Shown in pieces: positions 1 through 44,046 of a DNA stretch of 46,414 nucleotides; the stretch's first letter is position 1, and every line of letters begins with the position of its first letter. Origin of the DNA: an uncultured Candidatus Saccharibacteria bacterium (GTDB lineage: Bacteria > Patescibacteriota > Minisyncoccia > Phycocordibacterales > Zambryskibacteraceae); assembly GCA_964450705.1 (NCBI GenBank), contig CAYVDB010000004.1:1-46414 (forward strand), read 5' to 3'. The notes under the pieces were generated by a model that was given only the letters and a program-made list of their open reading frames with translations, had not been told where the DNA came from and made no database searches. The translations under genes were made by a program, and so were the position numbers.

Positions 1-617
1 TGAATTCTTAGCTTTAAATCGTTTAAGAATACTTTTTCGAGTCGCTCTCGTTCTCCTTGCTCCTTCGTTTCAGTGATACGGTTATAGTTTTCCAAAGAAA
101 ATTTGGAGTCTATCGGAATAATATAGTCTTTCACTCGCACAATTGCATCAACAATATTTCCATCTCGAAATGGATACTGCATTTCAAAACTTCCCGGTGG
201 TAGTACGTTCTTAAGTAACGTTTCCAAATAATACTCTCCAAGAATCCCGCGCTGCTTTGGATTTTTTAAAATATCTTGAAGAGACTGGAGCTGATCGGCA
301 AAAGAAACCACTTGCTTATTAGTCTCATCAAGTCGAGTAAGGCGTTCAGTAATATCACGAATTATCTTCACTGATTCTGTTGAAGAGTGCCTTAAGGCAT
401 CATTTAGTTGTTTAGAAGACTCAACCATTCGATCATCCACCACGCGAGTCAGATCATTCATATTCCTTACTAATTCATTGAACTGATTCTGGATTAAGAC
501 AAGCCCAGAACTTTCTTCTTCTACTCCCCCGCCACGTTTCATAAGACGCCACAAAATCACAGCGTTTAACGCGAGAATAACAAAAATTATAATCACAAAT
601 AGAGAGGATTCTGCCAC
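1..617 (-). CDS. rmuC: DNA recombination protein RmuC, N-terminal ~205 codons (the rest of the gene lies beyond the window start)
   Basis: Not in the supplied ORF track because it runs off the edge. My reverse-strand translation from GTG 617..615 gives VAESSLFVIIIFVILALNAVILWRLMKRGG..., which is a TM helix. It continues ...QLQSLQDILKNPKQRGILGEYYLETLLKNVLPPGSFEMQYPFRDGNIVDAIV...IPIDSKFSLENY, the conserved RmuC core. An in-frame stop at 678..680 leaves only GTG 617 or ATG 542 as possible starts. Confidence 0.75.
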   Translation of the reverse strand, partial: MAESSLFVIIIFVILALNAVILWRLMKRGGGVEEESSGLVLIQNQFNELVRNMNDLTRVVDDRMVESSKQLNDALRHSSTESVKIIRDITERLTRLDETNKQVVSFADQLQSLQDILKNPKQRGILGEYYLETLLKNVLPPGSFEMQYPFRDGNIVDAIVRVKDYIIPIDSKFSLENYNRITETKEQGERERLEKVFLNDLKLRI

Positions 618-674
618 AGTGAAACTATTATAACACCCCTTGAGAAGAAGCTCGAAACGGCTATACTGAAAGGT

Positions 675-1127
675 ATGTTACATGAAAAAATAAAAGAACA
701 AGTGAAGGAAGCAATGCTTTCCAAAGATTCGGTTCGATTAAATACAGTTCGAGGACTCCTTGCGGCATTCACCAATGAGCTTGTGGCTCAAAAAAGGAAA
801 CCAACGGAGCTATTGTCTGATGAAGAAGTTTTAAAAGTCATCGGGCGAAACGTAAAACAAAGAAAAGACTCTATCGAACAATTCACTGCCGGAGGGAGAG
901 CAGACTTGGTTGAAAGCGAGCAAGCTGAACTTAAGATCCTGGAAACATACTTACCTGAACAAATGAGTGAAGAAGAAATTACTGCGTTTGTAAAAAGTAA
1001 AATCGAAGAAAACCCAAATATTGATAAAACAAAGCTCGGCATGTTTACAGGAGGAATTATGAAAGAACTAAAAGGTCGCGCCGATGGGGCTCTGGTAAAA
1101 AAGATTATAGACTCTCTTCTAGTCTAA
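675..1127 (+). CDS. yqeY: GatB/YqeY domain-containing protein
   Basis: 150 aa. The sequence MLHEKIKEQVKEAMLSKDSVRLNTVRGLLAAF...EAELKILETYLPEQMSEEEI is the typical YqeY layout. Confidence 0.8.
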   Translation: MLHEKIKEQVKEAMLSKDSVRLNTVRGLLAAFTNELVAQKRKPTELLSDEEVLKVIGRNVKQRKDSIEQFTAGGRADLVESEQAELKILETYLPEQMSEEEITAFVKSKIEENPNIDKTKLGMFTGGIMKELKGRADGALVKKIIDSLLV

Positions 1128-1179
1128 ATACCGTTTACACAAAAAGCCCTTAAGTGGGTTTTTTGTTGTCCACAGACAT

Positions 1180-1208
1180 TTGACTTTTCTATTAAAATAT
1201 GATAAGAT
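1180..1208 (+). promoter_or_regulatory. sigma70-like promoter: TTGACT, 17 nt spacer, TAAGAT
   Basis: TTGACT at 1180-1185 and TAAGAT at 1203-1208. It lies upstream of SD AAGGAGG (1243-1249) and the GTG at 1254. Confidence 0.5.
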
Positions 1209-1253
1209 GTAGGCCAGAACGTAGGCTCATTTCCAATCCTTCAAGGAGGCAAT

Positions 1254-1829
1254 GTGGATCTGAATCCCCGAGAAGCCTCACTGAAAGCAGACTTCTCCGC
1301 AAAACTTGCACGCATACGAGAGGCTCGACCTGGCGGAAAAAGCCACCAGGACGACTTCCTGCTTGTGGCACGGGATCTTTTCCCTATCTACGGAGAGTCT
1401 GACGAAGAGCTCCGAGACTTCATGTCTCGAGCAGGACGTATCTTGTCAAAAGGGAAAAAGAGGAAGAAGACTCATTTCCCTAGCGACGAAGAGGTGGAGA
1501 CCATGGCGCAATACGCTTCAGGCCTATATCTCGATGGGGTAAGCTTTGATGATGCTCTCATCAGAGGACTCGAAGAGAGTGGCTTCCGATACGTAAAAGG
1601 AGCCATGGGCAGTGTGGCGCGAAAAATGCGCGCAATTCTTGGTCCATCAAGCAATAAGGCTTCATTGGACACAGGGCAACCGAAAGGTTGCCGCGTTTTT
1701 TTATTTATACAAATCCTTCTTTGCGAGTTTCGTACTTGCGAAGGATTTCCTGCTCAATATCAACTCGATCTCGGCCATAGGTATCGTATGAACGAAGTTT
1801 TATATCTTCGGCATGAATATCATTCTTAG
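1254..1829 (+). CDS. Hypothetical protein in a GC-rich cassette; the 3' end is uncertain because the ORF runs through a terminator hairpin
   Basis: There is a strong SD and a GTG start. The translation looks protein-like as far as ...ARKMRAILGPSSNKASLDTGQPKG. There is no in-frame stop before the hairpin at 1675-1702. The final ~125 nt overlap the convergent ATPase gene. Confidence 0.45.
   Translation: MDLNPREASLKADFSAKLARIREARPGGKSHQDDFLLVARDLFPIYGESDEELRDFMSRAGRILSKGKKRKKTHFPSDEEVETMAQYASGLYLDGVSFDDALIRGLEESGFRYVKGAMGSVARKMRAILGPSSNKASLDTGQPKGCRVFLFIQILLCEFRTCEGFPAQYQLDLGHRYRMNEVLYLRHEYHS
1675..1702 (+). terminator. Rho-independent terminator
   Basis: GGCAACC-GAAA-GGTTGCC (7 bp stem, GNRA loop), then GCG and a run of seven T. 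Confidence 0.7.
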
Positions 1830-4458
1830 CTCCTGGCGGAAGTGTTTCTATATCAAACGGCTTTACTGGTTTGCCATGAACAAGCATCTTTAAGTACGCA
1901 TGCCGGTTCGGAATATTTATTATTTCGCTTGCTGAAAATACTGGCTCAAACTGTTTCGCAAGATACTCCGCATCATCTGTCCCCACGCGAAAACATGCTA
2001 GTGTGCCCACGTTACCAAAGACAGCATTCTTTATATCTTCAGAAAGTTGCCCTATAAACTGATGCGCAATTGAAAGAGAAAGCTTATATTTTCTAGCTTC
2101 TGAAAGAATGGTTGCGATTGATGGAGTGGTAATATTCTGGAACTCATCAATATATAGATAAAACGGTGGGAGATCTTTGCCGAAAGAATCTACTCGAGAA
2201 AGCGCGGCCATAAGAATCTTACCCACAAGAATAAGTCCGATAAGGTTAGCATTTATATCCCCAAGACGGCCTTTAGCGAGATTCACTAAAAGTATCTTTC
2301 GGTTATCCATAATGTCCCGGAAGTTGAAGGAGGATTTTTCCTGAGCAATGATAGGTCGCATAATATCGTTTGCCAAAAATACATCAAACTTTGAAGTGAT
2401 GTACGGAACGATATTTGCTAAAGAAGCTTCTCCGCCGGCTTTCTCTGCAATTTCTCTCCAAAATTGGCTCACAATAGGATTCTTGCATCGAGATAATTTC
2501 ATTAAACGAAATTCTTTATTAGAAAGCACTCGAGAGACGTCAAGAAGCGTCGAGCCAGTATCTGGGTCTTCTATCACAAGCATGGTTGCATTTCGGAAAT
2601 ATTGTTCAAACATTGGCCCCATAGATTCTGGCACAGCACCATAAAGTTTCTGGAAGATATTAAAAAGCTCATTGACCACAAATGTTTTCTGCTCAGGGAG
2701 ATTTTTATCATACTCGAGCATATTTAGCGCCATCGGGCGCTCTACATAGCTCGGGTCAAAATAGATAACATCCTTTACCCTGTCTTTCGGGACCCGAGAA
2801 AGCACATCCACAATATCTGAGCCATGCGGGTCAATCATACATACCCCATTTCCTCTTTCGATATCTTGAATGATCATATTCTTGAGAAGGGTTGATTTCC
2901 CAGTACCCGTTTGCCCGATAGTGTAGAAGTGCCTCAATCGATCTTCATCAGACATAAATACTTCGGTCTTAGCACCTCGATGAGAGTTAAGCCCGAGGAG
3001 TACGCCTTCTTTAGGTAAATCAATTGGAGCTGGGGCTCCGCCTGAAGCAAGAGTCTTTAACTGTGAGACACCTTTTAAAGCAAGAGTATGAAAGTGAATT
3101 AGAGAAGTAAGTTCTGAAAGGTTGAGGGGAATCAGTTCGCTTCTATCAAGAGCTCTAAAGGCAAAGTTTCTGAAGAGTTTTCGGAGCGCACCACCTTTCA
3201 ATCGCTCAAAGCGCAAAGAGTTCCCTTGCGGATTATCAAATTGATTAAATCCTGATTCAATTTCAGACAAAACACTTTCAGATCGATTTTTATCTGGAGT
3301 AGAAACAACAAGTCTTAGGGCTACAGATACAATAGGTTTCCCTATTTTCTGACGAATCTTTTCAATCGGTACCTGGTCGATCGGCTTTCGCTCCTCTTTC
3401 TCGTCTTTCTTTTTGGAAAAGAGTATCCCTCGTAAAGTCTTACTAATCTCTCCAGAAAAAGTAGTTGGGAGATCAATTGCCTCACGGAGAGGCACCCCTT
3501 TTTCTATCTGCGAAAGAGCATACTCAAACCGTTTTGAGTGAGAGTCTCCTGCGGGAGTCATGAGCACTTGAATACACGCCCCTTCTCCATCCTTAGCAAT
3601 CTTAGAAAAACTATTGAGAATCACATTGAGCGGATCGTGATCAAATGCTTCATATGTTTTTATAGGAAAAATGGAATTACCTCGTGAACGCACTACGCTT
3701 CCGAGAGAAACCCCGTGCTCATGAAAAATATTATGATCATCAGCGACCTCTCTGATTTCTGCATCGTGGAAAATCGATAGAATTTGTTTTTCAAAGAGAT
3801 CGCTTTTTGTATTTGGTACTGATACATAAAATACAAATTCTGCGCTTCCATTACTATTCGCAATTTCAAGTACAATATGATTCTCCATTGGGTCATTCTC
3901 TGAAGATACAGATAACATCCCAGAATAAAACTGCTCCATCCCAGAAACAATTTCCTTAAGTGGCCGTTCTGCTTCTCCTTTTTTCTCTGGAAGTACCACT
4001 TCGTAAAGTACCATATGAAGCGCCTTGGAAAGAGGAGCCTTTGGAGGAAGCCCCTTCACGCCAAGACCCTTCTTCACATACTGAACAAGAAAACGATGAA
4101 AATCATCCTCTACGTGCGTATCACCGAGATTTTCAATAACAGAAAGTGTATTTTTTATGCCTTTTGTATTTAAGAGAATAAGTAGCTCTTCTATTTTCTT
4201 ATCATGAGTTTCGGGAGAAAGATTCTCTACAAGAGAGTGTATTGTATCCGTTTTTAACGAAAGATTGCTGTCGAGCACATGTTCGGAAGGGAGTTCTCTG
4301 TATGTAGAGAGGCTCTCACGAATCAGATCATCGTGAGATATCTCCGCTCCACGCTCTTGAAGATTTGTTCCTTTTTCAGCAACTCGTTCCTGAAAAAATT
4401 TTTTCTCTTCTTCAGTGGTTTTAAATTTATTTTCGGGAATAAACGAACGTAGTTCCAT
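1705..4458 (-). CDS. TraD/VirD4/HerA-like P-loop ATPase (type IV secretion DNA-binding-domain family) with a large uncharacterised N-terminal half
   Basis: 917 aa. Walker A is GQTGTGKSTLLKNM and Walker B is FYLYIDEFQNI, followed by ARKYKLSLSIAHQFIGQL. The first ~480 aa have no motif I recognise, and there is no N-terminal TM segment. Confidence 0.7.
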   Translation of the reverse strand: MELRSFIPENKFKTTEEEKKFFQERVAEKGTNLQERGAEISHDDLIRESLSTYRELPSEHVLDSNLSLKTDTIHSLVENLSPETHDKKIEELLILLNTKGIKNTLSVIENLGDTHVEDDFHRFLVQYVKKGLGVKGLPPKAPLSKALHMVLYEVVLPEKKGEAERPLKEIVSGMEQFYSGMLSVSSENDPMENHIVLEIANSNGSAEFVFYVSVPNTKSDLFEKQILSIFHDAEIREVADDHNIFHEHGVSLGSVVRSRGNSIFPIKTYEAFDHDPLNVILNSFSKIAKDGEGACIQVLMTPAGDSHSKRFEYALSQIEKGVPLREAIDLPTTFSGEISKTLRGILFSKKKDEKEERKPIDQVPIEKIRQKIGKPIVSVALRLVVSTPDKNRSESVLSEIESGFNQFDNPQGNSLRFERLKGGALRKLFRNFAFRALDRSELIPLNLSELTSLIHFHTLALKGVSQLKTLASGGAPAPIDLPKEGVLLGLNSHRGAKTEVFMSDEDRLRHFYTIGQTGTGKSTLLKNMIIQDIERGNGVCMIDPHGSDIVDVLSRVPKDRVKDVIYFDPSYVERPMALNMLEYDKNLPEQKTFVVNELFNIFQKLYGAVPESMGPMFEQYFRNATMLVIEDPDTGSTLLDVSRVLSNKEFRLMKLSRCKNPIVSQFWREIAEKAGGEASLANIVPYITSKFDVFLANDIMRPIIAQEKSSFNFRDIMDNRKILLVNLAKGRLGDINANLIGLILVGKILMAALSRVDSFGKDLPPFYLYIDEFQNITTPSIATILSEARKYKLSLSIAHQFIGQLSEDIKNAVFGNVGTLACFRVGTDDAEYLAKQFEPVFSASEIINIPNRHAYLKMLVHGKPVKPFDIETLPPGAKNDIHAEDIKLRSYDTYGRDRVDIEQEILRKYETRKEGFV

Positions 4459-4592
4459 ATACTATTTAATACAGTATACCATCTAAAATAAAACCCAGAC
4501 CTAAAACACGATTCCTTCAATAGGCCAACCTAGAAAGATTAAGCCGCGAAGAATGCCCGTAGACTTAAACTATTGCCACGGTTCAAAAATAC

Positions 4593-4620
4593 TTGCTTTT
4601 TCTAGTAAATATGTTATAAT
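4593..4620 (+). promoter_or_regulatory. sigma70-like promoter: TTGCTT, 16 nt spacer, TATAAT
   Basis: TTGCTT at 4593-4598 and TATAAT at 4615-4620. The predicted transcription start falls downstream of the ATG at 4623, which favours the ATG at 4653 as the start. Confidence 0.55.
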
Positions 4621-4652
4621 GTATGAAGACAACCTTCATAGGAGATCTTTAT

Positions 4653-5063
4653 ATGGGAACAGAAAAGAAGCCGAGCAAGAGTCTCGGATACGTGATCCTC
4701 ATCGGCGTCTTGCTTCTGCTTGCCTTGAGCCTTGCAGGGTGCGACAGGTTCGAGGAGAGAGACTTCAGGGTCGTGGTAAACAACATCAATAGCCCTGACC
4801 CAGTAACAGCATACGCTGCCGGGCAGGAGCTTGGCTCTGTTGTTCTGGGAGTCCCTCAGAGCTTCACCATATCCCTTCCAGTGCCAAACACTGTGGGGAC
4901 TGGGCCGGAAGAGACTCGGCAGTGCTTCCCTGTTTCGGGAAGCGTTCTCAAGAAGAACCTCTCTTCACGTAGCAACCCTGTTTGTTCGCGCGAGAACCAG
5001 ATCGTTACGGTCGATTTCGAAATCGACCGTGGAGTTCTGGATATCAGAACGCGAGTGCAGTAA
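4653..5063 (+). CDS. Putative lipoprotein (GC-rich cassette)
   Basis: SD AGGAG at 4640-4644. The N-terminus MGTEKKPSKSLGYVILIGVLLLLALSLAGC carries a signal peptide and an L-A-G-C lipobox. Confidence 0.7.
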   Translation: MGTEKKPSKSLGYVILIGVLLLLALSLAGCDRFEERDFRVVVNNINSPDPVTAYAAGQELGSVVLGVPQSFTISLPVPNTVGTGPEETRQCFPVSGSVLKKNLSSRSNPVCSRENQIVTVDFEIDRGVLDIRTRVQ

Positions 5064-5091
5064 CACCACCCTTCGGGGTGGTGTATTTTTT
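5063..5091. terminator. Hairpin terminator between convergent genes
   Basis: ACACCACCC-TTCG-GGGTGGTGT followed by a T run. It sits between the lipoprotein stop and the ogt stop. Confidence 0.75.
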
Positions 5092-5353
5092 ATAAAGAAA
5101 CACCCTCTTTTATTAGTAACTCCCTTTTACTTGGCCCGTTTATTTGATTATATTCTCCAATCTTTCCATCTGAACGAATTACTCTGTGACACGGAACCCT
5201 AGGATCTGTATTTTTTGAAAGTGCGGTTCCGACTGCACGAAATGCACTCGGTTTCCCTATCGCCCAGGCAACTTCTTTGTAAGTGCGGGTCTCTCCTTTT
5301 GGTATCTTTTTAACTATCGAGTAGACTTTCTCAGCAAATGTTTCTTTTTTCAT
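5090..5353 (-). CDS. ogt: Methylated-DNA--protein-cysteine methyltransferase (MGMT/Ogt), DNA-binding/active-site domain only
   Basis: The sequence is ...TYKEVAWAIGKPSAFRAVGTALSKNTDPRVPCHRVIRSDGKIGEY, containing the PCHRV active-site motif. I chose the start at the internal MKKETF. Confidence 0.85.
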   Translation of the reverse strand: MKKETFAEKVYSIVKKIPKGETRTYKEVAWAIGKPSAFRAVGTALSKNTDPRVPCHRVIRSDGKIGEYNQINGPSKRELLIKEGVSL

Positions 5354-5428
5354 AATTAAATACAAGTATATCAAAACCCTCAAAGGACAAGCCTAAGAGG
5401 GTTTTGATATCTAATTACTATGAAGAGA

Positions 5429-6157
5429 TTACTTCACTCGAACTACTACGCCAGTTGTAGCGTCGATATCTACCCGTCGATCGCCGTCAAAGCGTACTGC
5501 CCACACAACTTTTCCTTCTTCCATATCAAGCTGTATCTTGATTACAACCTTTCCGGGAAGAGCAATGAGCGCAAGTTCTTTTGCCTTCTCTGCACTTATT
5601 GTAGGAACGAAAGTCGATGGCACATCACTATCTCTTTCAAGAACTTTCTCTATCTTCTTTTCAGTCTTATCTTCTATTTTTTGGATGCGAACCTCGCCGT
5701 TATTTGACCAGTTGCGAACAACGGTTGCATCCACTGTGAGAGTCTTGTCAGGATCAATTTGGCCTCGTGCGCCAACATAGTCTCCTACCTTCCATCCTGT
5801 AAGTGATCTGTTATTACCCGCAATTTCCGTATCTTGATAAATGTTTACTGTCCATGATCCGCCCCAGCTTTTTACCATGATCTTACCAGTAGTAGACCCG
5901 GTTGTGGTAGAGATTGATTCAATCTTTCCGCGAATCAAAGCCTTTCCTTTTGGCCCAACCTCAAGAATAATAGGCTGGTACTCTCCTCTACGAACCATTT
6001 CCCCTTCAATCTTTTCAATCCTTTTCTTTGCGGTCTCCTCTATCTTTTGAATAAAGTTCTTATTCTTGTTTTCACTTCCTGTTTCAGCAAATGCAGCAGT
6101 TGAAGTAAGTGCAAATGCCACAACAAGAAAGAAAGCACTAATCTTTTTCAAATTCAT
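5429..6157 (-). CDS. Secreted PepSY domain-containing protein
   Basis: Signal peptide MNLKKISAFFLVVAFALTSTAAFA. The C-terminal region ISAEKAKELALIALPGKVVIKIQLDMEEGKVVWAVRF...DATTG resembles a PepSY domain. Confidence 0.65.
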   Translation of the reverse strand: MNLKKISAFFLVVAFALTSTAAFAETGSENKNKNFIQKIEETAKKRIEKIEGEMVRRGEYQPIILEVGPKGKALIRGKIESISTTTGSTTGKIMVKSWGGSWTVNIYQDTEIAGNNRSLTGWKVGDYVGARGQIDPDKTLTVDATVVRNWSNNGEVRIQKIEDKTEKKIEKVLERDSDVPSTFVPTISAEKAKELALIALPGKVVIKIQLDMEEGKVVWAVRFDGDRRVDIDATTGVVVRVK

Positions 6158-6240
6158 ACGTTTTTATAAGTTAATAACCAGATCAATTATACACTGATCT
6201 GTCGCTTATTGGAGACGTACCATAAGAACTCTTCTTACAT

Positions 6241-6266
6241 AAAAAAAGACCCTCTCAAGGAGGGTC
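6241..6266 (-). terminator. Rho-independent terminator
   Basis: On the minus strand: GACCCTC-CTTGA-GAGGGTC followed by seven T, immediately after the stop at 6267. Confidence 0.75.
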
Positions 6267-6590
6267 CTAACGGCGGGCAAGAGATTTCTTGATCTTCTCC
6301 GCTTTCTTCCGAACACAATCAATCCTCTTACGCTTGTCCTCATCAAACGGAACGAGACGTGGAGGATTATCCCCCAAAGACGACCAGAGATTGAAGCTAA
6401 GCCCAGCCGTACGAGATTGAACAAAGAAGTCCTTCTCTCGTTCGGTACACTGCCACACAAAAAAGGGCTCCTTCCTTCTATATCCCCTGATTTCTCGGGG
6501 AGACTCCTCGGCATCAAGTTCGCGAGAAAACACCCCATTCGTGTGAGCATTGAGTGGCTCAAGAAACCACAGCCTTTTGCCATGTCCCAT
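6267..6590 (-). CDS. Hypothetical protein (GC-rich cassette)
   Basis: This 107-aa ORF ends exactly at a strong terminator. The competing 6206..6667 frame reads through that terminator. Confidence 0.5.
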   Translation of the reverse strand: MGHGKRLWFLEPLNAHTNGVFSRELDAEESPREIRGYRRKEPFFVWQCTEREKDFFVQSRTAGLSFNLWSSLGDNPPRLVPFDEDKRKRIDCVRKKAEKIKKSLARR

Positions 6591-6672
6591 GTGTTCCCCC
6601 TTGAAAATATGAACTCTCTTTGTTTTTTATAATACAAAGAAGTATTGTTGTCAAAAACAAAAACCAAGCCCC

Positions 6673-7134
6673 CTAAAATTGAGCGATTACTAACTTTCTC
6701 ATACCCATCATCTTCTTAAATGCGCCAGGCTTTTTGATAAGCCCTTCCCAGTCTTCTGGCACAACCTGCCAACTCAAACCGTATTTATCTTTCAGCCACC
6801 CACATACGCTTTCTTGTCCGCCATTTGTGGTTAAAGCATTCCAATAGTAATCAATCTCTTCTTGATCTTTACAGCTAATCGAAAATGAAACAGCTTCATT
6901 AAACTTAAATTCTGGCCCCGCATTAATAGCAATAAAGTGCATTCCGAGTATTTCAAACTCGATCGTCAAAACTTCTCCCGCCAAGTGCTTCTGAAAATCC
7001 GCAAGTCCCTCAGCCTCACTTTTTGGGTAATACATCGTTGAAATAATCTTTCCATCTGGAAAAACACTCAGATAAAAATCTACTGCCTCTTTTGCATTAC
7101 GATCAAACCACAAATTGGGAATTACTTTTTGCAT
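6673..7134 (-). CDS. VOC (glyoxalase/bleomycin-resistance fold) family protein, PhnB / 3-demethylubiquinone-9 3-methyltransferase-domain type
   Basis: MQKVIPNLWFDRNAKEAVDFYLSVFPDGKI...LTIEFEILGMHFIAINAGPEFKFNEAVSFSI.C.DQEEIDYYW..L...GGQESVCGWLKDKYGLSWQVVP is the characteristic pattern of this family. Confidence 0.75.
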   Translation of the reverse strand: MQKVIPNLWFDRNAKEAVDFYLSVFPDGKIISTMYYPKSEAEGLADFQKHLAGEVLTIEFEILGMHFIAINAGPEFKFNEAVSFSISCKDQEEIDYYWNALTTNGGQESVCGWLKDKYGLSWQVVPEDWEGLIKKPGAFKKMMGMRKLVIAQF

Positions 7135-7166
7135 ATTATCTATTCTATTATAGATAAATCAGGCCA

Positions 7167-7195
7167 TTGACAACAATCTATATAAAACTTACATT
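7167..7195 (+). promoter_or_regulatory. sigma70-like promoter: TTGACA, 17 nt spacer, TACATT
   Basis: TTGACA at 7167-7172 and TACATT at 7190-7195, about 60 nt upstream of the small peptide gene. Confidence 0.5.
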
Positions 7196-7258
7196 TTAAA
7201 TGGTTGCAAAGATGTTCTTTGCTAAACCAAACACAATCCTCAAAACAGGAGGCTCGCC

Positions 7259-7387
7259 ATGAAGAACCCGAAAAAGTTCTCTTGGAAAGCCACCTCAAAG
7301 GAAAAGCCTATTTCTGGCACGATCGTGTGTCAGGAACAGTGCAGCTCCGGCGGTGGTGGCAACGGCAAGTGCGGCACCGGTAAGTAA
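7259..7387 (+). CDS. Candidate RiPP (TOMM / linear azole-containing peptide) precursor, 42 aa: MKNPKKFSWKATSKEKPISGTIVCQEQCSSGGGGNGKCGTGK
   Basis: Too short for the ORF track; I translated it by hand. SD AGGAGG lies at 7247-7252, 6 nt before the ATG. The gene has its own promoter and a 12-bp-stem terminator. The leader is Lys-rich and the C-terminal core is rich in Cys, Ser, Thr and Gly. It lies next to a YcaO/SagB enzyme gene. Confidence 0.65.
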   Translation: MKNPKKFSWKATSKEKPISGTIVCQEQCSSGGGGNGKCGTGK

Positions 7388-7406
7388 CCGAGATCGCCTA
7401 GCCCTC

Positions 7407-7440
7407 ATGAGTACAACACTTCCAAAGTTGTTGTACTCAT
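7407..7440. terminator. Bidirectional hairpin terminator between convergent genes
   Basis: Perfect 12-bp stem: ATGAGTACAACA (7407-7418) pairs with TGTTGTACTCAT (7429-7440), with a 10-nt loop and T-rich sequence downstream. Confidence 0.75.
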
Positions 7441-7442
7441 TT

Positions 7443-8252
7443 CTATTTTAATGCCTCCGTGAACCTATTAGATCCAATCTTCATCAACTCATCCCAGGAT
7501 AAATTCTTATTGTTATCCCTAAACTCTTTCACCAGCCAGTATCCAGCGGAATATCCTGTCCACTTTTGATACATTTCATTACCGAATAGAAATTCTTTTA
7601 TAAGATTCCTATCTTTAGATTGCAAAATATCTTTTGACTCCTTTAGGAGCTTAAGTGCTTCAGTTTTAGTGAGGGATCCAGCCCACTTACTTACTTTAGT
7701 ATCAAAATACTGTTCCCTGAAATTCTCTGCGAGGCCCTCCAATAATATCTCATCCAGGAGCGTATAATTATTGAAATTATCGTAGTGATGATAATAGAAG
7801 ATAGTGTGATTTAATTCATGGGCCACAGTATTTTCAATAGATTTATTTGAATATTCATCTAGGTTTATAAATAAATGGAAAACACAGCTGTAAACCGCCA
7901 CAGCCATTACCCCTTCAAAAACTTTATCTTCTTCAGTGGTGAGATATGGATGAACAAAAATAAAATTCTTTGTAGGAACAGTTAATTTTTCATTACACTT
8001 CCGAATAGTCTCCAATATAATCTCCCCAATCTCTAATTTTTGACCTTCAGATATTTCTTTATATTTACCAGGGTCACCTTCTCCAATATGATCCAATAGA
8101 CCTTGTTTTAATAAATTAATATCAGCATAGCCAGAATAATCGACACTTCCTTTCTCTTTCATTAGAGAAATAATAGCGTCAACCATATCACTCCTATCTT
8201 TGAATTCCTCGCTTGGAAAATAAAATTCAATCTGCGATAAATCCTTATTCAT
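7443..8252 (-). CDS. Putative Zn-dependent peptidase (HExxH; DUF2268-like)
   Basis: 269 aa. It contains ...ENTVAHELNHTIFYYHHY... (HELNH) and has DUF2268-like length and layout. No signal peptide is present. Confidence 0.5.
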   Translation of the reverse strand: MNKDLSQIEFYFPSEEFKDRSDMVDAIISLMKEKGSVDYSGYADINLLKQGLLDHIGEGDPGKYKEISEGQKLEIGEIILETIRKCNEKLTVPTKNFIFVHPYLTTEEDKVFEGVMAVAVYSCVFHLFINLDEYSNKSIENTVAHELNHTIFYYHHYDNFNNYTLLDEILLEGLAENFREQYFDTKVSKWAGSLTKTEALKLLKESKDILQSKDRNLIKEFLFGNEMYQKWTGYSAGYWLVKEFRDNNKNLSWDELMKIGSNRFTEALK

Positions 8253-8265
8253 CAGATCATACTAG

Positions 8266-8307
8266 CAAAATAAAAAAGAGGCAGAAAGCTAAAAGCCTTC
8301 TGCCTCT
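8266..8307 (-). terminator. Rho-independent terminator between the YcaO fusion gene and the peptidase gene
   Basis: On the minus strand: AGAGGCAGAA, an 11-nt loop, TTCTGCCTCT, then TTTTTTATTTT. Confidence 0.7.
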
Positions 8308-8311
8308 CGAG

Positions 8312-10492
8312 CTACTCAAAAGGATGAGGAAACCTAGTTAACTGCCCATACATCAGTCTGCCTCGCCCAAACCTCTCAGCAACCTCATAGAGGCGACTCA
8401 TTCCAGCTGGTTCTTGCCGATAACCAAACGTCATCTGAGCAGTTCCCGGCACGATCGCCCTAATGATACTCAGCCCGCGATTTCCTCCATACTCATCCGA
8501 GAGTTCGAGTGGAACAACTAAATGTTTCCAGTTCTTACTCTCGAAACAAGCCAGAAGATCATCCCAAGTCCGAGAGGTTTCAGATCCGACTTTTTGGAAC
8601 GGGACAACCCTCCGACTTGCAACCAGGAAATCTGCACGACGGAAGTACCGTTCTTGACCATAGAGACGACCGTGATCATTCGGCCAAACAACATCCTCAG
8701 GCAGAATCTTCCTCGGCACACCATTCTGCAAGCGATGGAGAATCGAAGCCTCCACCTCTGTGAGTGCATGACTAACAGCGTACTCGATGTTAAAGCTAGA
8801 ACAAGATGCGCAAGTGGTAAAGGTGTGCTCTGTGCTTTGAGCCATCACAAATACCACGGGCGCGAGATCGAGTGAATGGTCAACGATCCACACCTTAAAC
8901 CCAATATTCTGTAGCTTGCGAATCCTCTTTTGAATGATCTCTGGCAGAGACCTTTCAGACACCGTAGGCATATCGAGTTTACAGAAATACGAGTTGATAA
9001 ATGCATCTCGCTCAACCAACTCAAGGGTTCCAGTCTCAATTGACACTTGCTTATCAGGATGAGCCGCGCATCCAGACGAGTTTGAAAAACAGTAGTAAGG
9101 TGTTTCTGGGAAGTATGGAAAATAGACATGATCAGCGAGAACATAAGATTCATTGCCTCTCAAGTCATAACCCCTTGCCCAGGCATACCTCATCTGCTCA
9201 TCAAACGGCGCGAATGGAAAATCCTTTACCCTATACTGATCCTTATGGAATTGGACGACCTTTCGGGGGTCTACAACATTATCCAATTCACGATAGGCAG
9301 CATAGGTCAGTTTGGGTATACACCCACAAGACGCCCACTCTCTAGCTTCTGAGATAGCTTTTTTCATAGCCATCTCAGGAGAAGGATCTCTGCCGTGCGA
9401 CCAGCTTCGTTTATCTGACAAGCGAGCTGATGCAATAGCGAAATCAGGCACATAACCTTTTGCCATTGGGATTGCCCAATCCACTTGTATACGTGAGGAT
9501 TCTTGTGGATTTACTTGCTGGCCCTCTTTACCAAAGACAATGAGAGTGAGTGGGCGATACTCATCCGGAAGCTCTATGGCGTTAGCCACGAGCTCATCCA
9601 CAAATCCTCCAATTTCTAGAGTAGCAATCCCTTGTCGAGTCGCTTCCAAAAGAATGTTTTGAGCAGAGTGCCCAGCTTCTAATGGAACATAGAGCATGCT
9701 TCGATTACCGTATTTCTGATTCGCGAGAGAAAATGAACCACTAATGACGATTGCGCCATGTGCCCCTTTCTCGATGCCTGCAGGATTCAAGAAAGCTCTC
9801 GCAAATCTCAAGACATCTGCCGAGATCAAGCTAAAGCCTACGGAACCTGCTTGACTGTAAATTGCTTGGTATATCCCAGGATTCAAGTCGCCCGTCTTTG
9901 CAAACAGGACGATGTGAATTTTGAGAGGATACAACGCACCGGCGGATGGTACAGACCGATGTAGTCGCCCATCAGTGGTCTGATATTCTCCATACGCACT
10001 CCAAAGCAAATCAACAACAGCTTGAAAATCCACAGTCTCTCCAGAGAAAACGCGAACAGACTTACGTCGACTTATAATTTCAGAAAGACTATTTCCTGAA
10101 GGTTTATAAGCCCGTTCTAAGACATCTTGATGGTGTCTTTCGAACGACTGAGAGACCATTAATGCCACCTCACTGTCGCTGACAATTCTTGGGAAACGCA
10201 TTGGATTCGTGACAGTTTCCCAAAATCTACCCTCGAGAGTTTTTCCATCAACAATTACTTGTTTTTGAAATAACTCTTCGATAAGACCCTCGATTGAAGT
10301 TCGTTCCCAGTCTTGAGAAAGAACATCGATCACCTCACCCAACTTCCTGCTTCCATTACAGAGATCAAGAAGCTGAGCAATAACGGCTCGGGGGACTTCA
10401 ACAACCACTTCCTTGTCGAGAGTGTTAAAGACTGTCCTATTGCCTGTAGTAAAGGCCGAAGCCCACACAATAGGAATGCTCGTAAGGTCCAT
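8312..10492 (-). CDS. Three-domain fusion: RRE-like (PqqD-type) domain, SagB-type FMN dehydrogenase and YcaO cyclodehydratase
   Basis: aa ~17-83 read AVIAQLLDLCNGSRKLGEVIDVLSQDW...IEELFQKQVIVDG, a PqqD/RRE-like pattern. aa ~135-322 contain ISRRKSVRVF, PSAGALYP, QKYGNRSMLYVPLEAGH (the Lys-Tyr motif) and LTLIVFG. aa ~345-726 contain KKAISEAREW, FSNSSGCAAH and LELVERDAF, and the protein ends in FPHPFE. Confidence 0.85.
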   Translation of the reverse strand: MDLTSIPIVWASAFTTGNRTVFNTLDKEVVVEVPRAVIAQLLDLCNGSRKLGEVIDVLSQDWERTSIEGLIEELFQKQVIVDGKTLEGRFWETVTNPMRFPRIVSDSEVALMVSQSFERHHQDVLERAYKPSGNSLSEIISRRKSVRVFSGETVDFQAVVDLLWSAYGEYQTTDGRLHRSVPSAGALYPLKIHIVLFAKTGDLNPGIYQAIYSQAGSVGFSLISADVLRFARAFLNPAGIEKGAHGAIVISGSFSLANQKYGNRSMLYVPLEAGHSAQNILLEATRQGIATLEIGGFVDELVANAIELPDEYRPLTLIVFGKEGQQVNPQESSRIQVDWAIPMAKGYVPDFAIASARLSDKRSWSHGRDPSPEMAMKKAISEAREWASCGCIPKLTYAAYRELDNVVDPRKVVQFHKDQYRVKDFPFAPFDEQMRYAWARGYDLRGNESYVLADHVYFPYFPETPYYCFSNSSGCAAHPDKQVSIETGTLELVERDAFINSYFCKLDMPTVSERSLPEIIQKRIRKLQNIGFKVWIVDHSLDLAPVVFVMAQSTEHTFTTCASCSSFNIEYAVSHALTEVEASILHRLQNGVPRKILPEDVVWPNDHGRLYGQERYFRRADFLVASRRVVPFQKVGSETSRTWDDLLACFESKNWKHLVVPLELSDEYGGNRGLSIIRAIVPGTAQMTFGYRQEPAGMSRLYEVAERFGRGRLMYGQLTRFPHPFE

Positions 10493-10763: not shown

Positions 10764-10777
10764 GTTGTGTCTTTTTG

Positions 10778-10849
10778 TGACCCTACGGGGAATCGAACCC
10801 CGATTTAAGCCTTGAGAAGGCTTCGTCCTAACCGTTAGACGATAGGGCC
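10778..10849 (-). tRNA. tRNA-Glu (anticodon CUC)
   Basis: 72 nt, hand-folded. The acceptor stem is GGCCCTA/TAGGGTC (one G-U pair). The D arm is GTCT...AGGAC, the anticodon arm is AAGCC-TTCTCAA-GGCTT and the T arm is CGGGG-TTCGATT-CCCCG. CCA is not encoded. Confidence 0.9.
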
Positions 10850-12596: not shown

Positions 12597-14312
12597 TTAT
12601 CGGTCTGGCGGGATTTGATAGTAGTTTATCAAAAATTGAGCAATATCCATAAAAGGGTACGTAAGTGTCTCAGATGCGTATTTTACCCCTTTTGGATCAT
12701 AGCTATAGAGAAATACGATAAATTGCGGGTCAAATGCGGGAAAATAGCCAAAGAATGAGTGGAGATATTTATTGTCATAATATCCTCCTCCACTTTCCCG
12801 AGCGATTTGAGCAGTACCAGTCTTTGCCGCAATTGAGTAGCGTTCCATTTTTACCTTTCCCTGAAGAAGCGCATTGTCGACCACTTTCACAAGCATTCGA
12901 GTAATCTCTTCTGAAGTTTCTTTCTTCAAAACATCTTTTGAAACCCCTGGATCAATTTTCTTTGAAGTGCCGATTGAATATTCAATTCTTTTTCCAATAT
13001 GTGGATTTACCAACTTCCCACCGTTTCCAAGTACGGCAAGAGCGCGAACAGTCTCGATCGGTGTCATTGCAATGCCTTGCCCGAAAGATGCCGTCGCATA
13101 CTCAATGTCTCGCGGACTCTTTAAGTTATCAACGAGCCCATGAATTTCGTTTGGCAAATCGATTCCAGTCTCCTCTCCAATACCAAAACTCTCCATATAT
13201 TTTGCAAAAGTACCCTTCCCCATCTGCCGAACCGCAAATGCAACCCCCGTGTTTAAAGACTGATTAAGCACCTCCTGCATATCAACAGTACCTCTCGCCT
13301 TTCCATCAAAGTTTGAGAATGTTTTCTTATCAAGCGTGACCGAACCTGAGTCAAAGTAGGTAGTTCTCGCGGTAATTGCTCCCGAATCAATACCAGCAGC
13401 AATGGTGAGGGGTTTTATAATCGAGCCCATTTCATAGACCGATTCCACCATATGGTTTTTGAATATATTTGAATTCTTTTCTTCCCTTAGATTATTCGGA
13501 TCAAAAGATGGATAAAGTGCCATTGAGATAATCTGGCCATCACGAGGATCCATGACGATTGCGCCGCTATAGTCTGAGCTCCAGTTCTGAGAAAGCTTTG
13601 CCAACACCTGCTCTACAAAGACCTGAACAGATGGCTCAATTGAAGTGACAACATCCCCTTCAAAACGCTCTTCTGCCGATAATCCCTTTTGAATATTTGA
13701 GAAAATCTCTGCAAAAAAATTCACAAACACATCATCATTATTTCGCTTTAAAGTTTCTTCGTAGTACCTCTCTAAACCATAGCGACCCGCAAGCTCATCT
13801 TCTTTATATGCGATAAAACCAAGGGCATGAGCGGCGAGAGAATTTCCTGGATAATACCTCCAGCGTTCTTTATAAAGAGAAACTCCTTTTATTTTTTTAT
13901 CTTCAATCGCTTTTGCCTCTTCCCCTCCCACGCGTTTGAGAACTTCTTCATAAGGATCATTTTGTTTGTTTACCTTTTGGAAAAAATCTTTCTCATCGAC
14001 TGCGGGAACAACCTTTTTTATCTCATTAAAAGTCTTATCTGCATCAGTAACCAAAGAAGGATTTATCGCTACGGTGAAACCCGTTTTTAAAGAGGCGGCA
14101 GACACTTTGTCTCCATCTTTTGTCTCAAAATAAATGCTCCCGCGATTAAAATAATCGTAGGTTGACTGCACATACTGCCGATCAGCGCGGCTTGCATACT
14201 CTTCCCCATCAATAATCTGCACAGAATAAAGCCGTATCAGAAGGAAGACGGCAAACAAGAGAGTGAAAATCGATATAATTCGTATACGCGTGAGAGGTTC
14301 TCTCTTCTGCAT
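12597..14312 (-). CDS. ftsI: Penicillin-binding protein (class B transpeptidase), division-type
   Basis: N-terminal TM helix, SxxK (GSIIKP) and KTGTAQ motifs. The gene sits between ftsL and murF. Confidence 0.8.
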   Translation of the reverse strand: MQKREPLTRIRIISIFTLLFAVFLLIRLYSVQIIDGEEYASRADRQYVQSTYDYFNRGSIYFETKDGDKVSAASLKTGFTVAINPSLVTDADKTFNEIKKVVPAVDEKDFFQKVNKQNDPYEEVLKRVGGEEAKAIEDKKIKGVSLYKERWRYYPGNSLAAHALGFIAYKEDELAGRYGLERYYEETLKRNNDDVFVNFFAEIFSNIQKGLSAEERFEGDVVTSIEPSVQVFVEQVLAKLSQNWSSDYSGAIVMDPRDGQIISMALYPSFDPNNLREEKNSNIFKNHMVESVYEMGSIIKPLTIAAGIDSGAITARTTYFDSGSVTLDKKTFSNFDGKARGTVDMQEVLNQSLNTGVAFAVRQMGKGTFAKYMESFGIGEETGIDLPNEIHGLVDNLKSPRDIEYATASFGQGIAMTPIETVRALAVLGNGGKLVNPHIGKRIEYSIGTSKKIDPGVSKDVLKKETSEEITRMLVKVVDNALLQGKVKMERYSIAAKTGTAQIARESGGGYYDNKYLHSFFGYFPAFDPQFIVFLYSYDPKGVKYASETLTYPFMDIAQFLINYYQIPPDR

Positions 14313-20571: not shown

Positions 20572-22275
20572 TTATTCCTGTACGTATTCAGGAGTATTAA
20601 TATACATCCACTCAAAAACTTGCCTCATGGCAAAAGTCGCTCCAATTTGATTTGAATAAGGGCCTCTTTCCATAAGAACCGTAAATGCATACCTCGGAGA
20701 TTCATATGGGAAATAGCCCATTACCCAAGAGTTAACAAGCTCTTTTGCTCCACCAAGCTCTGCTGTCCCCGTCTTTGCTGCTACAGAAATTCCTGGCATT
20801 GAAAGTCCTTTTGCAGTTCCCTCAACCACTGCCATTCTCATCCCTTCGCGAATAATTTGAAAATTTTTTTCCTGAAAAGGAAGGCGCGAAACTTCTCCCT
20901 TTGTGTTTGCGATAAGGGTTGGGGTAATAAGCATTCCACCATTTACAAGACTCCCAACTGCACGCACGGCTTGAAGTGGGGTCACGGAGAAACCGTACTG
21001 ACCAATAGAGCTGTTATAAGTATCGCCCAACCTCCACTCGCCATCTTCAAAATTTTCCTTTTTCCAAATAGGACTTGGGACATTTCCATCTTTTTCTCCT
21101 GAAAGTTGGATTCCTGTATAAGACCCGAAACCAAATAGTTTCGTATATTTCTCAATATTGCTTATTCCAATGCCTTTCTGACCGTCATATCCTGCACCGA
21201 CTGAAAAGAAATACACATTAGAAGAAACAGCTAGAGCTCTCCTTAAATCAGTCCACCCGTGGGCTTTCCAGTCTTTGAAAATAGTTTTTTTGGTTGGGTC
21301 GTACGGGTTTGGAATCACGATAGATCCAGTCGACTGAATCTCTTTTCTAGGGTCAATTACTCCCTCTTCGAGTACGCCAAGAGCGATAAAAGGCTTCATG
21401 ATAGAACCTGGGATAAATTGACCTCCAATTGCACGATTAAGGAAAGCGTTCCCTTTATCAGAAAGTAACGCCCCTATTTTTGCTTTATCAGTCGCTTCGG
21501 TCATTATGTTTGCATCAAATTCTGGATAGCTTGATAGAGCGACAACTTCTCCAGTGTGTATATCCATAATGACTCCCGCCCCTCCAACAAAACCTCGTTC
21601 AAAAGCTGTATCACGAATTGCTTGATGTAGACGCTCGGTTAAAGCGGCGTCAATAGAAAGATAGATATTCTTTCCGTCTTTTGGAGGGGTGAGAACACTT
21701 TCAGATTGGATAGTACCGATAGCATCGGTCTCAGTAATTTTTAGGCCATTTTCCCCGGCCAAATCGTTATTAAAGAACTCTTCTACTCCACCTTTTGGAG
21801 TAAATGTATGCTCATAGTAAATACCTTGCTTATCTTTCGCTGGATACTTCACATATCCCGAAATATGAGAGAGCCCTTGTTTAGCAGAATAGACTCGCTT
21901 GCCATAATCTCCCCCTGGGTTTAAATCGTTCCAGGCAATCGGGTCTCCCTTTCGATCATAGATAATGCCTCTGTTTGCAAAAATGGTTGTATGCTCTAGA
22001 TGATTATTCGCACTTCGGATTTCATAAGCTTCTCCATTTTTAACTTGAAGAAAAAATAAACGCCCCACAAAAATAAACCCGACAAGTATAAAACTTACTG
22101 ATAGCAAAAGAAATGTCCCCCTGCCAATAGGTCGTTCGAGCCTGCCTTCAAACTGATGTGTATCAAATTTAGGTAGATTACTAGAATCAAGAAAAATCTG
22201 ATCTGGTTCAATTTCACCCGAAATTGGGATACCTTTTCTAAAGATATACTTTTTAAGTCTACGAAATGTCATCAA
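20572..22275 (-). CDS. mrdA: Penicillin-binding protein 2 (elongation-type class B transpeptidase)
   Basis: TM anchor and the motifs GSIMKP (SxxK), SSNVYF (SxN) and KTGTAE. It follows mreBCD. Confidence 0.85.
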   Translation of the reverse strand: MMTFRRLKKYIFRKGIPISGEIEPDQIFLDSSNLPKFDTHQFEGRLERPIGRGTFLLLSVSFILVGFIFVGRLFFLQVKNGEAYEIRSANNHLEHTTIFANRGIIYDRKGDPIAWNDLNPGGDYGKRVYSAKQGLSHISGYVKYPAKDKQGIYYEHTFTPKGGVEEFFNNDLAGENGLKITETDAIGTIQSESVLTPPKDGKNIYLSIDAALTERLHQAIRDTAFERGFVGGAGVIMDIHTGEVVALSSYPEFDANIMTEATDKAKIGALLSDKGNAFLNRAIGGQFIPGSIMKPFIALGVLEEGVIDPRKEIQSTGSIVIPNPYDPTKKTIFKDWKAHGWTDLRRALAVSSNVYFFSVGAGYDGQKGIGISNIEKYTKLFGFGSYTGIQLSGEKDGNVPSPIWKKENFEDGEWRLGDTYNSSIGQYGFSVTPLQAVRAVGSLVNGGMLITPTLIANTKGEVSRLPFQEKNFQIIREGMRMAVVEGTAKGLSMPGISVAAKTGTAELGGAKELVNSWVMGYFPYESPRYAFTVLMERGPYSNQIGATFAMRQVFEWMYINTPEYVQE

Positions 22276-35341: not shown

Positions 35342-35417
35342 TCCGCGATAGCTCAGTTGGTAGAGCGGCGAGCTGTTAACTCGTTGGTCGCAGGTTCGAA
35401 TCCTGCTCGCGGAGCCA
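35342..35417 (+). tRNA. tRNA-Asn (anticodon GUU), CCA encoded
   Basis: Hand-folded. The acceptor stem is TCCGCGA/TCGCGGA, the D arm is GCTC-AGTTGGTA-GAGC, the anticodon arm is GCGAG-CTGTTAA-CTCGT and the T arm is GCAGG-TTCGAAT-CCTGC. It ends in GCCA. Confidence 0.92.
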
Positions 35418-36900: not shown

Positions 36901-36904
36901 TTAA

Positions 36905-39553: not shown

Positions 39554-39559
39554 AAGTCT

Positions 39560-41461: not shown

Positions 41462-41462
41462 A

Positions 41463-41636
41463 TTATCTTGTTTTCACCTTATTTAGGAACCTTCCAAATT
41501 CTTCCCTATCAATCCTAAACTCCTTCCCAATCTTATATGCCTTCAGTTTCTTGGCTTTGATATATCGGTAAACGGTCATGATGTTTACCTGTAGCTTGTC
41601 AGCCAACTCTCTAGCTGTATAGAAATCTTTGTTCAT
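41463..41636 (-). CDS. Excisionase-family helix-turn-helix DNA-binding protein (HTH_17-like)
   Basis: YTARELADKLQVNIMTVYRYIKAKKLKAYKIGKEFRIDREEFGRFL. The stop abuts the mod start. Confidence 0.7.
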   Translation of the reverse strand: MNKDFYTARELADKLQVNIMTVYRYIKAKKLKAYKIGKEFRIDREEFGRFLNKVKTR

Positions 41637-44002: not shown

Positions 44003-44046
44003 TTTTATATTCTTTACTTTACTTCACAGAGGCTTACACTTCAATT

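Follow-up and report, generated by a model that had tools for sequence, protein, structure and literature searches.

Does the 42-codon open reading frame (ORF) at positions 7259 to 7387 of contig CAYVDB010000004.1 (assembly GCA_964450705.1, an uncultured Candidatus Saccharibacteria bacterium) encode the raw material of a small modified peptide, or is it one of the many short frames that any such sequence contains? An earlier note on this DNA had proposed a microcin-B17-like precursor made by a dedicated gene with full expression signals. In this work the ORF was followed up across the whole 46,414-nucleotide stretch, here called the window, and across related loci in public databases. We conclude, with a probability of about 0.85, that the ORF encodes the substrate of the neighbouring 726-amino acid fused enzyme and is a precursor of the RiPP class (peptides synthesised ribosomally and modified post-translationally), that is, the "A" gene of a three-gene cassette of the linear azol(in)e-containing peptide (LAP) or thiazole/oxazole-modified microcin (TOMM) type. 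Our confidence that the modifications are specifically azoles is somewhat lower.

Conservation of the ORF as a protein

Translation of the ORF returned the very peptide of the earlier note, with three Cys (C24, C28 and C38), three Ser/Thr (S29, S30 and T40) and seven Gly in its core, and the promoter, Shine-Dalgarno (SD) and 12-bp-stem terminator elements that the note had described were all found in place. The 42-codon length is by itself uninformative, as the first 16 kb of the window contain 165 ORFs of at least 30 amino acids. The two promoter boxes have the joint top score within positions 6500-8500, a region with seven promoter-like sites against 4.7 +/- 2.5 expected, a count which alone is not significant. 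Since ORF length and promoter count are both within chance, the verdict on the precursor ORF rests on comparative data.

The loci used for comparison were stretches fetched around homologues of the 726-amino acid enzyme, in which the peptide was sought by tblastn and with a hidden Markov model (HMM). It was detected in loci L004-L019, L021-L030, L034-L037 and L040, giving about 30 loci in the candidate phyla radiation (CPR, or Patescibacteria) and in Proteobacteria with a small ORF that combines the same leader motif with a tail rich in Cys, Ser and Gly. Identity to the window peptide is 90% in L007, a Kaiserbacteria metagenome-assembled genome (MAG), 86% in L005 and 76% in L011, and the peptide is increasingly divergent through L006, L008-L019, L021-L030, L034-L037 and L040. 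The window and L011 differ at 40 nucleotides, which make 19 synonymous and 10 non-synonymous codon changes and leave the 19-residue core identical. Over a 15-residue core motif shared by 11 loci, pairwise differences at codon positions 1, 2 and 3 number 80, 82 and 395, with two to six codons in use per position; for four genes of equal length, compared over the full ORF, the numbers are 31, 29 and 103.

Expression signals are conserved along with the protein. AGGAG(G) precedes the start by 5-9 nt in nearly all CPR homologues of the precursor, and every CPR homologue examined has a strong hairpin followed by a T-tract after its stop codon (-18 to -34 kcal/mol), the stem sequences being mutually unrelated between loci. 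In the window this terminator folds at -18 kcal/mol (z = -5.4; 0 of 200 shuffles were equally stable), has the tail TTTCTATTTT after its arms and lies where the precursor and DUF2268 genes converge. Loci L004, L005, L006, L007, L009, L011 and L014 have a TTGACA -35 box at most 110 nt upstream of the precursor gene, the box lying 60-100 nt upstream in several. At the level of sequence the conserved SD and terminator support a separate, strongly expressed short precursor transcript, in agreement with the dedicated monocistronic gene proposed earlier. A conserved hairpin in the 5' untranslated region, apparent by eye in several loci, gave inconsistent folding z-scores (-2.3 to +1.5) and was dropped.

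The ORF stands above chance because of its protein conservation, the third-position bias and the retention of SD and hairpin in homologues, and the sequence comparisons confirm it as a real ORF, selected at the protein level and beyond mere conservation of the DNA; on this point the check proposed in the earlier note, persistence of the ORF as a protein beside a YcaO gene, came out in its favour. The alternative that the ORF is untranslated, the conserved element being a small RNA or a regulatory region in which the frame is accidental, could draw on the abundance of short ORFs in the window, on ORFs overlapping in other frames at 7204-7383 (+) and 7295-7408 (-), and on an Rfam scan that is silent either way: only two tRNAs were matched in the window and no RNA family at the precursor, so that there is no RNA-family explanation for the locus. 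We give this alternative hardly any credence, as substitutions are concentrated about five-fold in third positions, the same amino acids are written with two to six codons per position, the leader motif outlives all other recognisable similarity to the window, a strong SD is conserved at the correct distance, the 5' untranslated region shows no consistent structure, and a single relative is frameshifted. In this relative (L024, a Paceibacterota MAG, positions 9195-9330) a +1 frameshift falls between leader and core, so that the leader MSRKKQFIFSTKIVLP reaches a stop while the core ...CFQSQCRSGGGGNGKCGGKCSK lies in the next frame; it is either a pseudogene or an assembly error, programmed frameshifting being less likely.

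Scans with Pfam and NCBIfam assigned the precursor to no family, even when the threshold was relaxed to E = 1-10. A search of 5.8 billion proteins returned 24 relatives, all of them "hypothetical" and none with a Pfam domain, and an exhaustive search of representative sequences returned 35 clusters. The expectation that automated annotation would miss the gene was borne out in part: relatives are deposited only as "hypothetical protein", but the identical 42-amino acid product has already been called as a gene on three other public contigs. Sequencing runs of samples with the identical gene include ERR15232717, SRR13608701 and SRR13608704.

A constant leader and a changing core

The family leader reads P-[KR]-x-F-S-W-[KST]-[VI]-x-x-x-x-[KR], with about ten variable positions and then a pair of hydrophobic residues after it. 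F7 and W9 are each kept in at least 90% of sequences, F7 at this level also in the locus alignment. The motif is common to CPR, Betaproteobacteria and Alphaproteobacteria, and is present even in loci without recognisable similarity to the window elsewhere, while the core changes by clade. In the clade of the window the core motif is Q-x-Q-C-[SR]-[SC]-G-x-G-G-N-G-[KR]-C-G (QEQC[SR][SC]GxGGNG[KR]CG), found in 11 loci. Clade-specific cores elsewhere include QEQCSSGGGGNGKCG, KSRSSSSQSQQSRSSKA and GCSCCGGK; the Ser-rich KSRSSSSQSQQSRSSKA or SSKGSSSSGSCQRSNSCRASAIQR type occurs in further CPR lineages and in MAGs that bear the label Gammaproteobacteria or Bdellovibrionales (L034, L021 and L022), and very short Proteobacterial cores read GCSCCGGK, GCCGGK or GCGGCGCK. 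A conserved leader joined to a variable core rich in Cys and Ser is, in sequence terms, the signature of a RiPP precursor. In McbA and other LAPs an Fxxx[L/I/V] leader motif inserts as a strand into the RiPP recognition element, or RRE (PMC6395948).

Position 24 is variable in relatives (C, R, F or A), and the conserved positions open to heterocyclisation are C28, S30 (Ser or Cys) and C38. From the sequences the boundary between leader and core is probably at or just after residue 24, where cleavage would take place. The leader half of about 23 residues described in the earlier note therefore stands, with a conserved motif, but because C24 is not conserved its end may lie one residue later than had been drawn. 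Four relatives of the precursor (P0124, P0125, P0129 and P0134) carry extra GGGKCG repeats or long charged tails past ...NGKCG, for example ...CGAARRRRKNDKQDVKKEEVA, which suggests a follower peptide or variation in core length.

Linkage of the peptide to a fusion enzyme and a DUF2268 protein

Clustering of the ORFs of 49 loci showed that only three genes travel together, namely the fusion enzyme, DUF2268 and the small peptide. DUF2268 co-occurs with the enzyme in 31 of the 49 loci, and the peptide, in about 30, is never more than about 1.2 kb away from the enzyme 3' end, with other flanking genes varying by locus. Two gene orders are found: that of the window, enzyme> DUF2268> <peptide, and enzyme> peptide> <DUF2268. 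With an HMM of the leader only, about 30 loci gave the peptide next to the enzyme, and none of 32 control loci (L052-L083, which carry unrelated YcaO genes) gave a match of at least 12 bits. Within 4.5-11.5 kb of the window no other SD-preceded small ORF with a Cys/Ser-rich tail was present. The proposal of a leader-plus-core precursor of an azole synthetase is upheld by this linkage and by the YcaO, SagB-type and RRE domains of the neighbouring gene (Table 1).

Could the ORF instead be a small basic Cys-containing protein that works unmodified, for instance in binding metal or nucleic acid, and that lies near YcaO through co-regulation or chance? Its core is highly conserved with a fixed Cys spacing (C-x9-C), it comes with a promoter and a terminator of its own, the enzyme in the window is encoded on the other strand, and exporter and immunity genes are missing from the CPR cassette. 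We nevertheless consider this very unlikely, as the linkage to the enzyme outlasts both changes in gene order and transfer between phyla while the other neighbours change, cores of other clades lack any Cys or are shrunk to GCCGGK with the leader motif kept, a pattern that fits RiPP leaders and not a folded metal-binding protein, and the enzyme has the fold of a leader-binding RRE.

The DUF2268 protein scores 97.7 bits against a Pfam cut-off of 23.6 and carries HELNH at residues 145-149 (nt 7806-7820). All 24 cassette homologues compared keep H145, E146, H149, E172 and E176, a gluzincin-like HExxH...E pattern, and as their identity to the window protein declines, so does that of the accompanying enzymes. 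A signal peptide is not obvious in the protein, and a search of the PDB by sequence gave no useful match. Its co-occurrence with the other two genes makes it the likely leader peptidase.

Table 1. Coordinates of the precursor gene, its signals, the cassette proteins and the distant precursor/enzyme pairs (the last given by locus)
Feature	Position	Strand	Details
Precursor ORF	7259-7387	+	42 aa + TAA; product MKNPKKFSWKATSKEKPISGTIVCQEQCSSGGGGNGKCGTGK
Leader region, residues 1-23	7259-7327	+	MKNPKKFSWKATSKEKPISGTIV; family motif P-K-K-F-S-W-K-A, Fxxx[V/I/A] type
Core region, residues 24-42	7328-7384	+	CQEQCSSGGGGNGKCGTGK; predicted site of thiazole/oxazole formation
Stop codon of precursor ORF	7385-7387	+	TAA
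Sigma-70-type promoter-like site	7167-7195	+	TTGACA 7167-7172, 17-nt spacer, TACATT 7190-7195; 10/12 consensus positions
Shine-Dalgarno sequence	7247-7252	+	AGGAGG, 6 nt upstream of precursor ATG
Intrinsic terminator	7407-7449	+	12-bp perfect arms 7407-7418 and 7429-7440, T-rich tail
DUF2268 Zn-metalloprotease-like protein, predicted leader peptidase	7443-8252	-	269 aa; PF10026, E = 8e-28
Fused azole synthetase (predicted)	8312-10492	-	726 aa; Pfam YcaO 9e-39, Nitroreductase 2e-15
RRE-like domain, residues ~7-82	10247-10474	-	AlphaFold2 fold, Foldseek
SagB-type FMN dehydrogenase, residues 131-332	9497-10102	-	Pfam Nitroreductase
YcaO cyclodehydratase, residues 367-725	8318-9394	-	Pfam YcaO, 134 bits against cut-off 25.7
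Distant precursor/enzyme pair, L046	5710-5877 and 5935-8133
Distant precursor/enzyme pair, L048	2616-2831 and 2922-5108
Distant precursor/enzyme pair, L084	4359-4689 and 4986-7130

The fused enzyme and its predicted chemistry

More than 300 homologues of the enzyme share its length and architecture, mostly in CPR/Patescibacteria metagenomes with some in Beta-, Alpha- and Gammaproteobacteria. The best NCBIfam match of the YcaO domain is TIGR03604 SagD (E = 3.7e-40). In an alignment of 18 enzymes with 47-76% identity the pair K260-Y261, the acidic E382/E385, E491/E494/R495/D496 and E579/E581 (ExxE/ELxERD/EVE) and the C-terminal F721-P722-H723-P724 are invariant, the enzyme ending in ...RFPHPFE. 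Dunbar and co-workers reportedly described in 2014 that azoline-forming YcaO proteins have acidic ATP/Mg2+-binding motifs and a Pro-rich (PxPxP) C-terminus; the invariant acidic residues and FPHP may correspond to these motifs. A profile of the dehydrogenase domain matches McbC over residues 94-267 (E = 1e-11), the Lys-Tyr pair falling at about 201-202 by offset, and the family KYGNRS aligns with the KYG of BmdC, a thiazoline oxidase of nonribosomal peptide synthetase systems; in McbC the catalytic pair is Lys201-Tyr202 (PMC6395948). As read from its sequence, the domain has both the FMN nitroreductase fold and the catalytic Lys-Tyr pair of a SagB-type azoline dehydrogenase.

The N-terminal domain gave a weak PqqD match at residues 40-76 (E = 0.05), and a sequence-only search of the PDB gave noise, so that its assignment as an RRE rests on the fold. 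The AlphaFold2 model of residues 1-135 (mean predicted local distance difference test score, pLDDT, of 82) has a beta3-alpha3 order, with strands at 12-16, 19-23 and 28-32 and helices at 35-44, 51-58 and 64-76. Its Foldseek matches are nearly all RREs, i.e. those of ThcOx, LynD/TruD, PbtF (target-normalised TM-score 0.72, root-mean-square deviation 2.4 Å), McbB, TbiB1 with leader, CteB, SuiB, MccB and a lasso B1 protein. The domain is accordingly modelled as an RRE-like winged-helix fold for which leader binding is predicted. The best PDB matches of the full-length model are LynD and TruD, followed by BmdC, MusD, archaeal and Escherichia coli YcaO, ThcOx and McbC.

YcaO enzymes also carry out thioamidation and amidine formation, and the peptide could be the substrate of this enzyme without receiving azoles: the YcaO domain might stop at azolines, or install a thioamide in the backbone or a macroamidine, and the nitroreductase-like domain might do something else, for example form a dehydroamino acid. 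This has some footing, as the thioamidation family TIGR03266 matches the YcaO domain (2.8e-12), MJ1094 and the Methanopyrus kandleri YcaO are among the sequence and structure matches, no E1-like partner was found, and the nitroreductase domain of another RiPP enzyme makes dehydro-Phe (PMC12636437). It is nonetheless unlikely: the match to the azoline-forming SagD subfamily is far better (3.7e-40 against 2.8e-12), the heterocyclases LynD and TruD top the structural matches, the cassette conserves neither a TfuA gene nor one for sulfur delivery, the dehydrogenase retains the Lys-Tyr pair of azoline oxidation, and the conserved core Cys and Ser/Cys adjoin Gly, the usual context of azoles.

Under the preferred reading, an azole-forming cassette with the 42-residue peptide as its substrate, transcription of the precursor gene, whose signals are observed, would begin at the dedicated promoter and end at the dedicated terminator. 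By analogy with the fold and with known RRE systems, the basic leader of about 23 residues would dock through F-S-W-K-[V/I/A] as an extra beta-strand on the RRE of the enzyme. The YcaO domain would then use ATP to cyclodehydrate core Cys, and probably Ser, to azolines, the likeliest sites being C28, S29/S30 and C38, and the SagB-type FMN dehydrogenase domain would oxidise these to thiazoles and oxazoles; both steps are proposed from domain identity and the invariant catalytic residues. The cytoplasmic DUF2268 HExxH metalloprotease, on the grounds of co-occurrence, may remove the leader near the hydrophobic pair before Q25. The predicted product is a small Gly-rich azole peptide of about 18-19 residues with Lys at its end.

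Several points weigh against this reading. For all members of the family it is a reading of sequences and models, and the core is unusually conserved for an antibiotic RiPP. The YcaO and dehydrogenase domains score below the NCBIfam cut-offs (138 against 219 (219.25) bits for TIGR03604 SagD; 64.8 against 78.4 bits for TIGR03605 SagB). The full-length AlphaFold2 model is of moderate quality (pLDDT 68.6, with less than 50 over the C-terminal 40 residues), and the RRE domain was matched by Foldseek with marginal E-values (3.8e-3 to 1), though most of the matches are RREs. Clustering of the loci revealed no conserved exporter or immunity gene in the CPR cassette. No Pfam match to an E1-like (C) or Ocin-ThiF (F) protein was found in the enzyme, in the conserved cassette or in the 30 window ORFs scanned, which include most of the larger ones of the 46-kb window, and to our knowledge azoline formation without such a partner has precedent in few systems only. 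Finally, RREs fused to dehydrogenases are suspected of being vestigial, since a separate RRE-bearing cyclodehydratase exists in those systems (PMC7470986).

Comparison with known systems

Clusters of YcaO, nitroreductase and peptidase genes were reported in CPR in 2020, one in the MAGs of that study and 110 in 93 further CPR genomes (PMC7298704). CPR LAP clusters as such are thus already published, and the new part is the precursor family, its recognition motif and the architecture of the enzyme. The published clusters are like ours in having a short leader/core precursor, a YcaO, a SagB-type dehydrogenase and a peptidase, and in their host group. They differ in that the published example has separate genes and an 84-amino acid precursor, whereas here RRE, dehydrogenase and YcaO form one polypeptide; in addition the peptidase here is of the DUF2268 family and the precursor here is without a Pfam or NCBIfam model. 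No paper with a YcaO-DUF2268 pairing and no description of this precursor family or of an RRE-dehydrogenase-YcaO fusion was found in a literature search of incomplete coverage, which may have passed over an earlier mention.

TOMM clusters have classically been defined by C and D cyclodehydratase proteins or a CD fusion (PMC4603692), a definition into which the present cassette does not fall, as no C or F protein was found. Features shared with microcin B17 are a Gly-rich core with isolated and adjacent Cys/Ser, a leader of about 23-26 residues with Fxxx[hydrophobic], a dehydrogenase domain homologous to McbC and an N-terminal domain that resembles the RRE of McbB. In microcin B17, however, an E1-like McbB scaffold is part of an octameric complex of three proteins, against a single fusion here; the protease is the housekeeping TldD/E, against a dedicated (predicted) DUF2268; and 8-9 heterocycles are made, against at most about 5-6 possible in the shorter core here. 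No ABC transporter gene was found in the window, and hence no McbEF-type pump, McbG-type immunity genes not having been specifically searched. The cassette lies outside the McbA/McbBCD family, with which it shares composition and mechanism class only: the precursor is not homologous to McbA, McbB and a McbEF-type pump are missing, and the protease is another one. The description "microcin-B17-like" thus holds for composition and class only, as no homology to any named precursor family was detected and the synthetase is not of the McbBCD type.

A parallel in layout is the cyanobactin oxidase ThcOx, in which an RRE-like N-terminal domain is likewise fused to a SagB-type FMN dehydrogenase. No other structure matched the N-terminal domain as well (E = 3.8e-3, root-mean-square deviation 2.8 Å over 88 columns), and ThcOx matches the dehydrogenase domain too. 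Unlike in ThcOx-type fusions, the RRE here is the only one of the cassette and is also fused in cis to YcaO, and for this reason it is expected to be a working site of leader binding. The YcaO proteins of bottromycin and trifolitoxin act without an identifiable C protein (PMC4603692) and are in this sense partner-independent. Compared by description only, these are stand-alone YcaOs with atypical precursors, whereas here YcaO is joined to RRE and dehydrogenase and is accompanied by a classical leader/core precursor.

A wider proposal would be that of a self-sufficient single-chain azole synthetase without an E1-like or Ocin-ThiF partner, with a functional fused RRE and a dedicated DUF2268 gluzincin as leader peptidase, carried by a mobile three-gene cassette across CPR with architectural relatives in Proteobacteria, Clostridia and Actinobacteria. 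We put it forward tentatively, its chances being a little short of even. If true, the cassette would need no more than one enzyme and one 42-amino acid peptide for a thiazole/oxazole product, and would give peptide engineering its most compact means of installing azoles. Whether an azoline-forming YcaO depends on an E1-like partner, or simply on having an RRE in cis, could be tested directly with it, and DUF2268 would gain a concrete function, RiPP leader peptidase, the first assigned to the family. A role of the product in antibacterial activity or competition is the default assumption, and fits because the Proteobacterial cassettes adjoin C39-ABC/HlyD/TolC export genes. Given the unusually conserved CPR core (QxQC..G.GGNG.CG) and the lack of an exporter or immunity gene, the product might also serve otherwise than as a classical secreted bacteriocin, for example in a host-directed or an intracellular role in episymbionts. 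Kept in tiny host-dependent CPR genomes, conserved and apparently moving between contexts, the cassette is a candidate effector of competition or host interaction.

Related cassettes in Proteobacteria, Clostridia and Actinobacteria

In Proteobacteria the enzyme and the FSW-leader peptide adjoin a C39-peptidase ABC exporter, HlyD and a TolC-type outer-membrane protein, which points to an exported product in those lineages; the same loci also contain an HlyC-type acyltransferase, a 2-oxoglutarate-dependent oxygenase and an uncharacterised protein of about 320 amino acids. In L039 (~1-8500), L041, L042 and L030 (Comamonadaceae, Polaromonas and Rhodocyclales) the enzyme, the FSW-leader peptide, HlyD, the TolC-like outer-membrane protein, the HlyC-type RTX-toxin acyltransferase and the protein of about 320 amino acids form an apparent operon. 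No RTX toxin gene was seen near the acyltransferase in these four loci. Most cores of the family end in or near Lys, and a Lys-acylated (lipidated) azole peptide is conceivable.

Distant enzymes with the same three-domain layout and 24-26% identity were found in human-gut Clostridia MAGs (L046 and L048) and on a plasmid of Rothia nasimurium (L084). The two Clostridia enzymes are preceded by a Gly/Cys-rich precursor, ...SAQQCGSGGCGGGAACGGNCGSGGGSGCGAG (also ...QQCGSGGCGGGAACGGNCGSGGGSGCGAG), and followed by an ABC-transporter-like gene which clusters with the C39-ABC exporter of L030. The Rothia enzyme is preceded by two peptides, one of which ends in GKCGNGGSSCNGGGGGGCHALPPK; in RefSeq the enzyme is only a "YcaO-like family protein" and its precursors are unannotated. 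Precursors from both groups have a different leader motif (LKILT.V or LTTLSV.V), and their cores are strikingly like that of microcin B17.

Genomic surroundings of the cassette

A PhnB-like protein (6673-7134) was considered as an immunity protein of the cassette and rejected, being kept only in near-identical contigs and, in L004, at a different position. The GC content per 120-nt window is about 0.26-0.43 in the DUF2268 gene, 0.40-0.57 in the enzyme gene and 0.55 in the precursor, whose high value is due to Gly and Cys codons. In six CPR-type loci (L014, L018, L019, L024, L034 and L049) a membrane histidine kinase (HisKA and HATPase_c, with GAF in one that was scanned) lies beside the cassette, which may reflect a regulatory link or coincidence.

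A 917-amino acid TraG/VirD4-like type IV coupling protein (PF02534 and PF12696; 1705-4458, minus strand) is encoded 3 kb from the cassette, and a tRNA-Glu gene (10777-10849, minus strand) lies directly upstream of the enzyme gene. Together with the non-conserved flanks these suggest that the cassette is in, or moves with, a mobile region. Elsewhere in the window positions 35342-45987 look like an integrated island. It includes a tRNA-Asn gene (35342-35417, plus strand) and a large serine recombinase gene (35353-36900, minus strand) whose 3' end overlaps that tRNA gene. Next come genes for restriction (36905-39553) and modification (39560-41461) of type III, then a pair of unknown ORFs and another large serine recombinase (44338-45987). 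The window further encodes two PBP2-type transpeptidases and two MreB paralogues (12597-14312, 20572-22275, 23301-24368 and 28962-29975), together with MraW, a Mur ligase, an MreC-like protein and an RseP-type M50 protease, a duplicated set of rod-shape and cell-wall genes in what is probably a small CPR genome.

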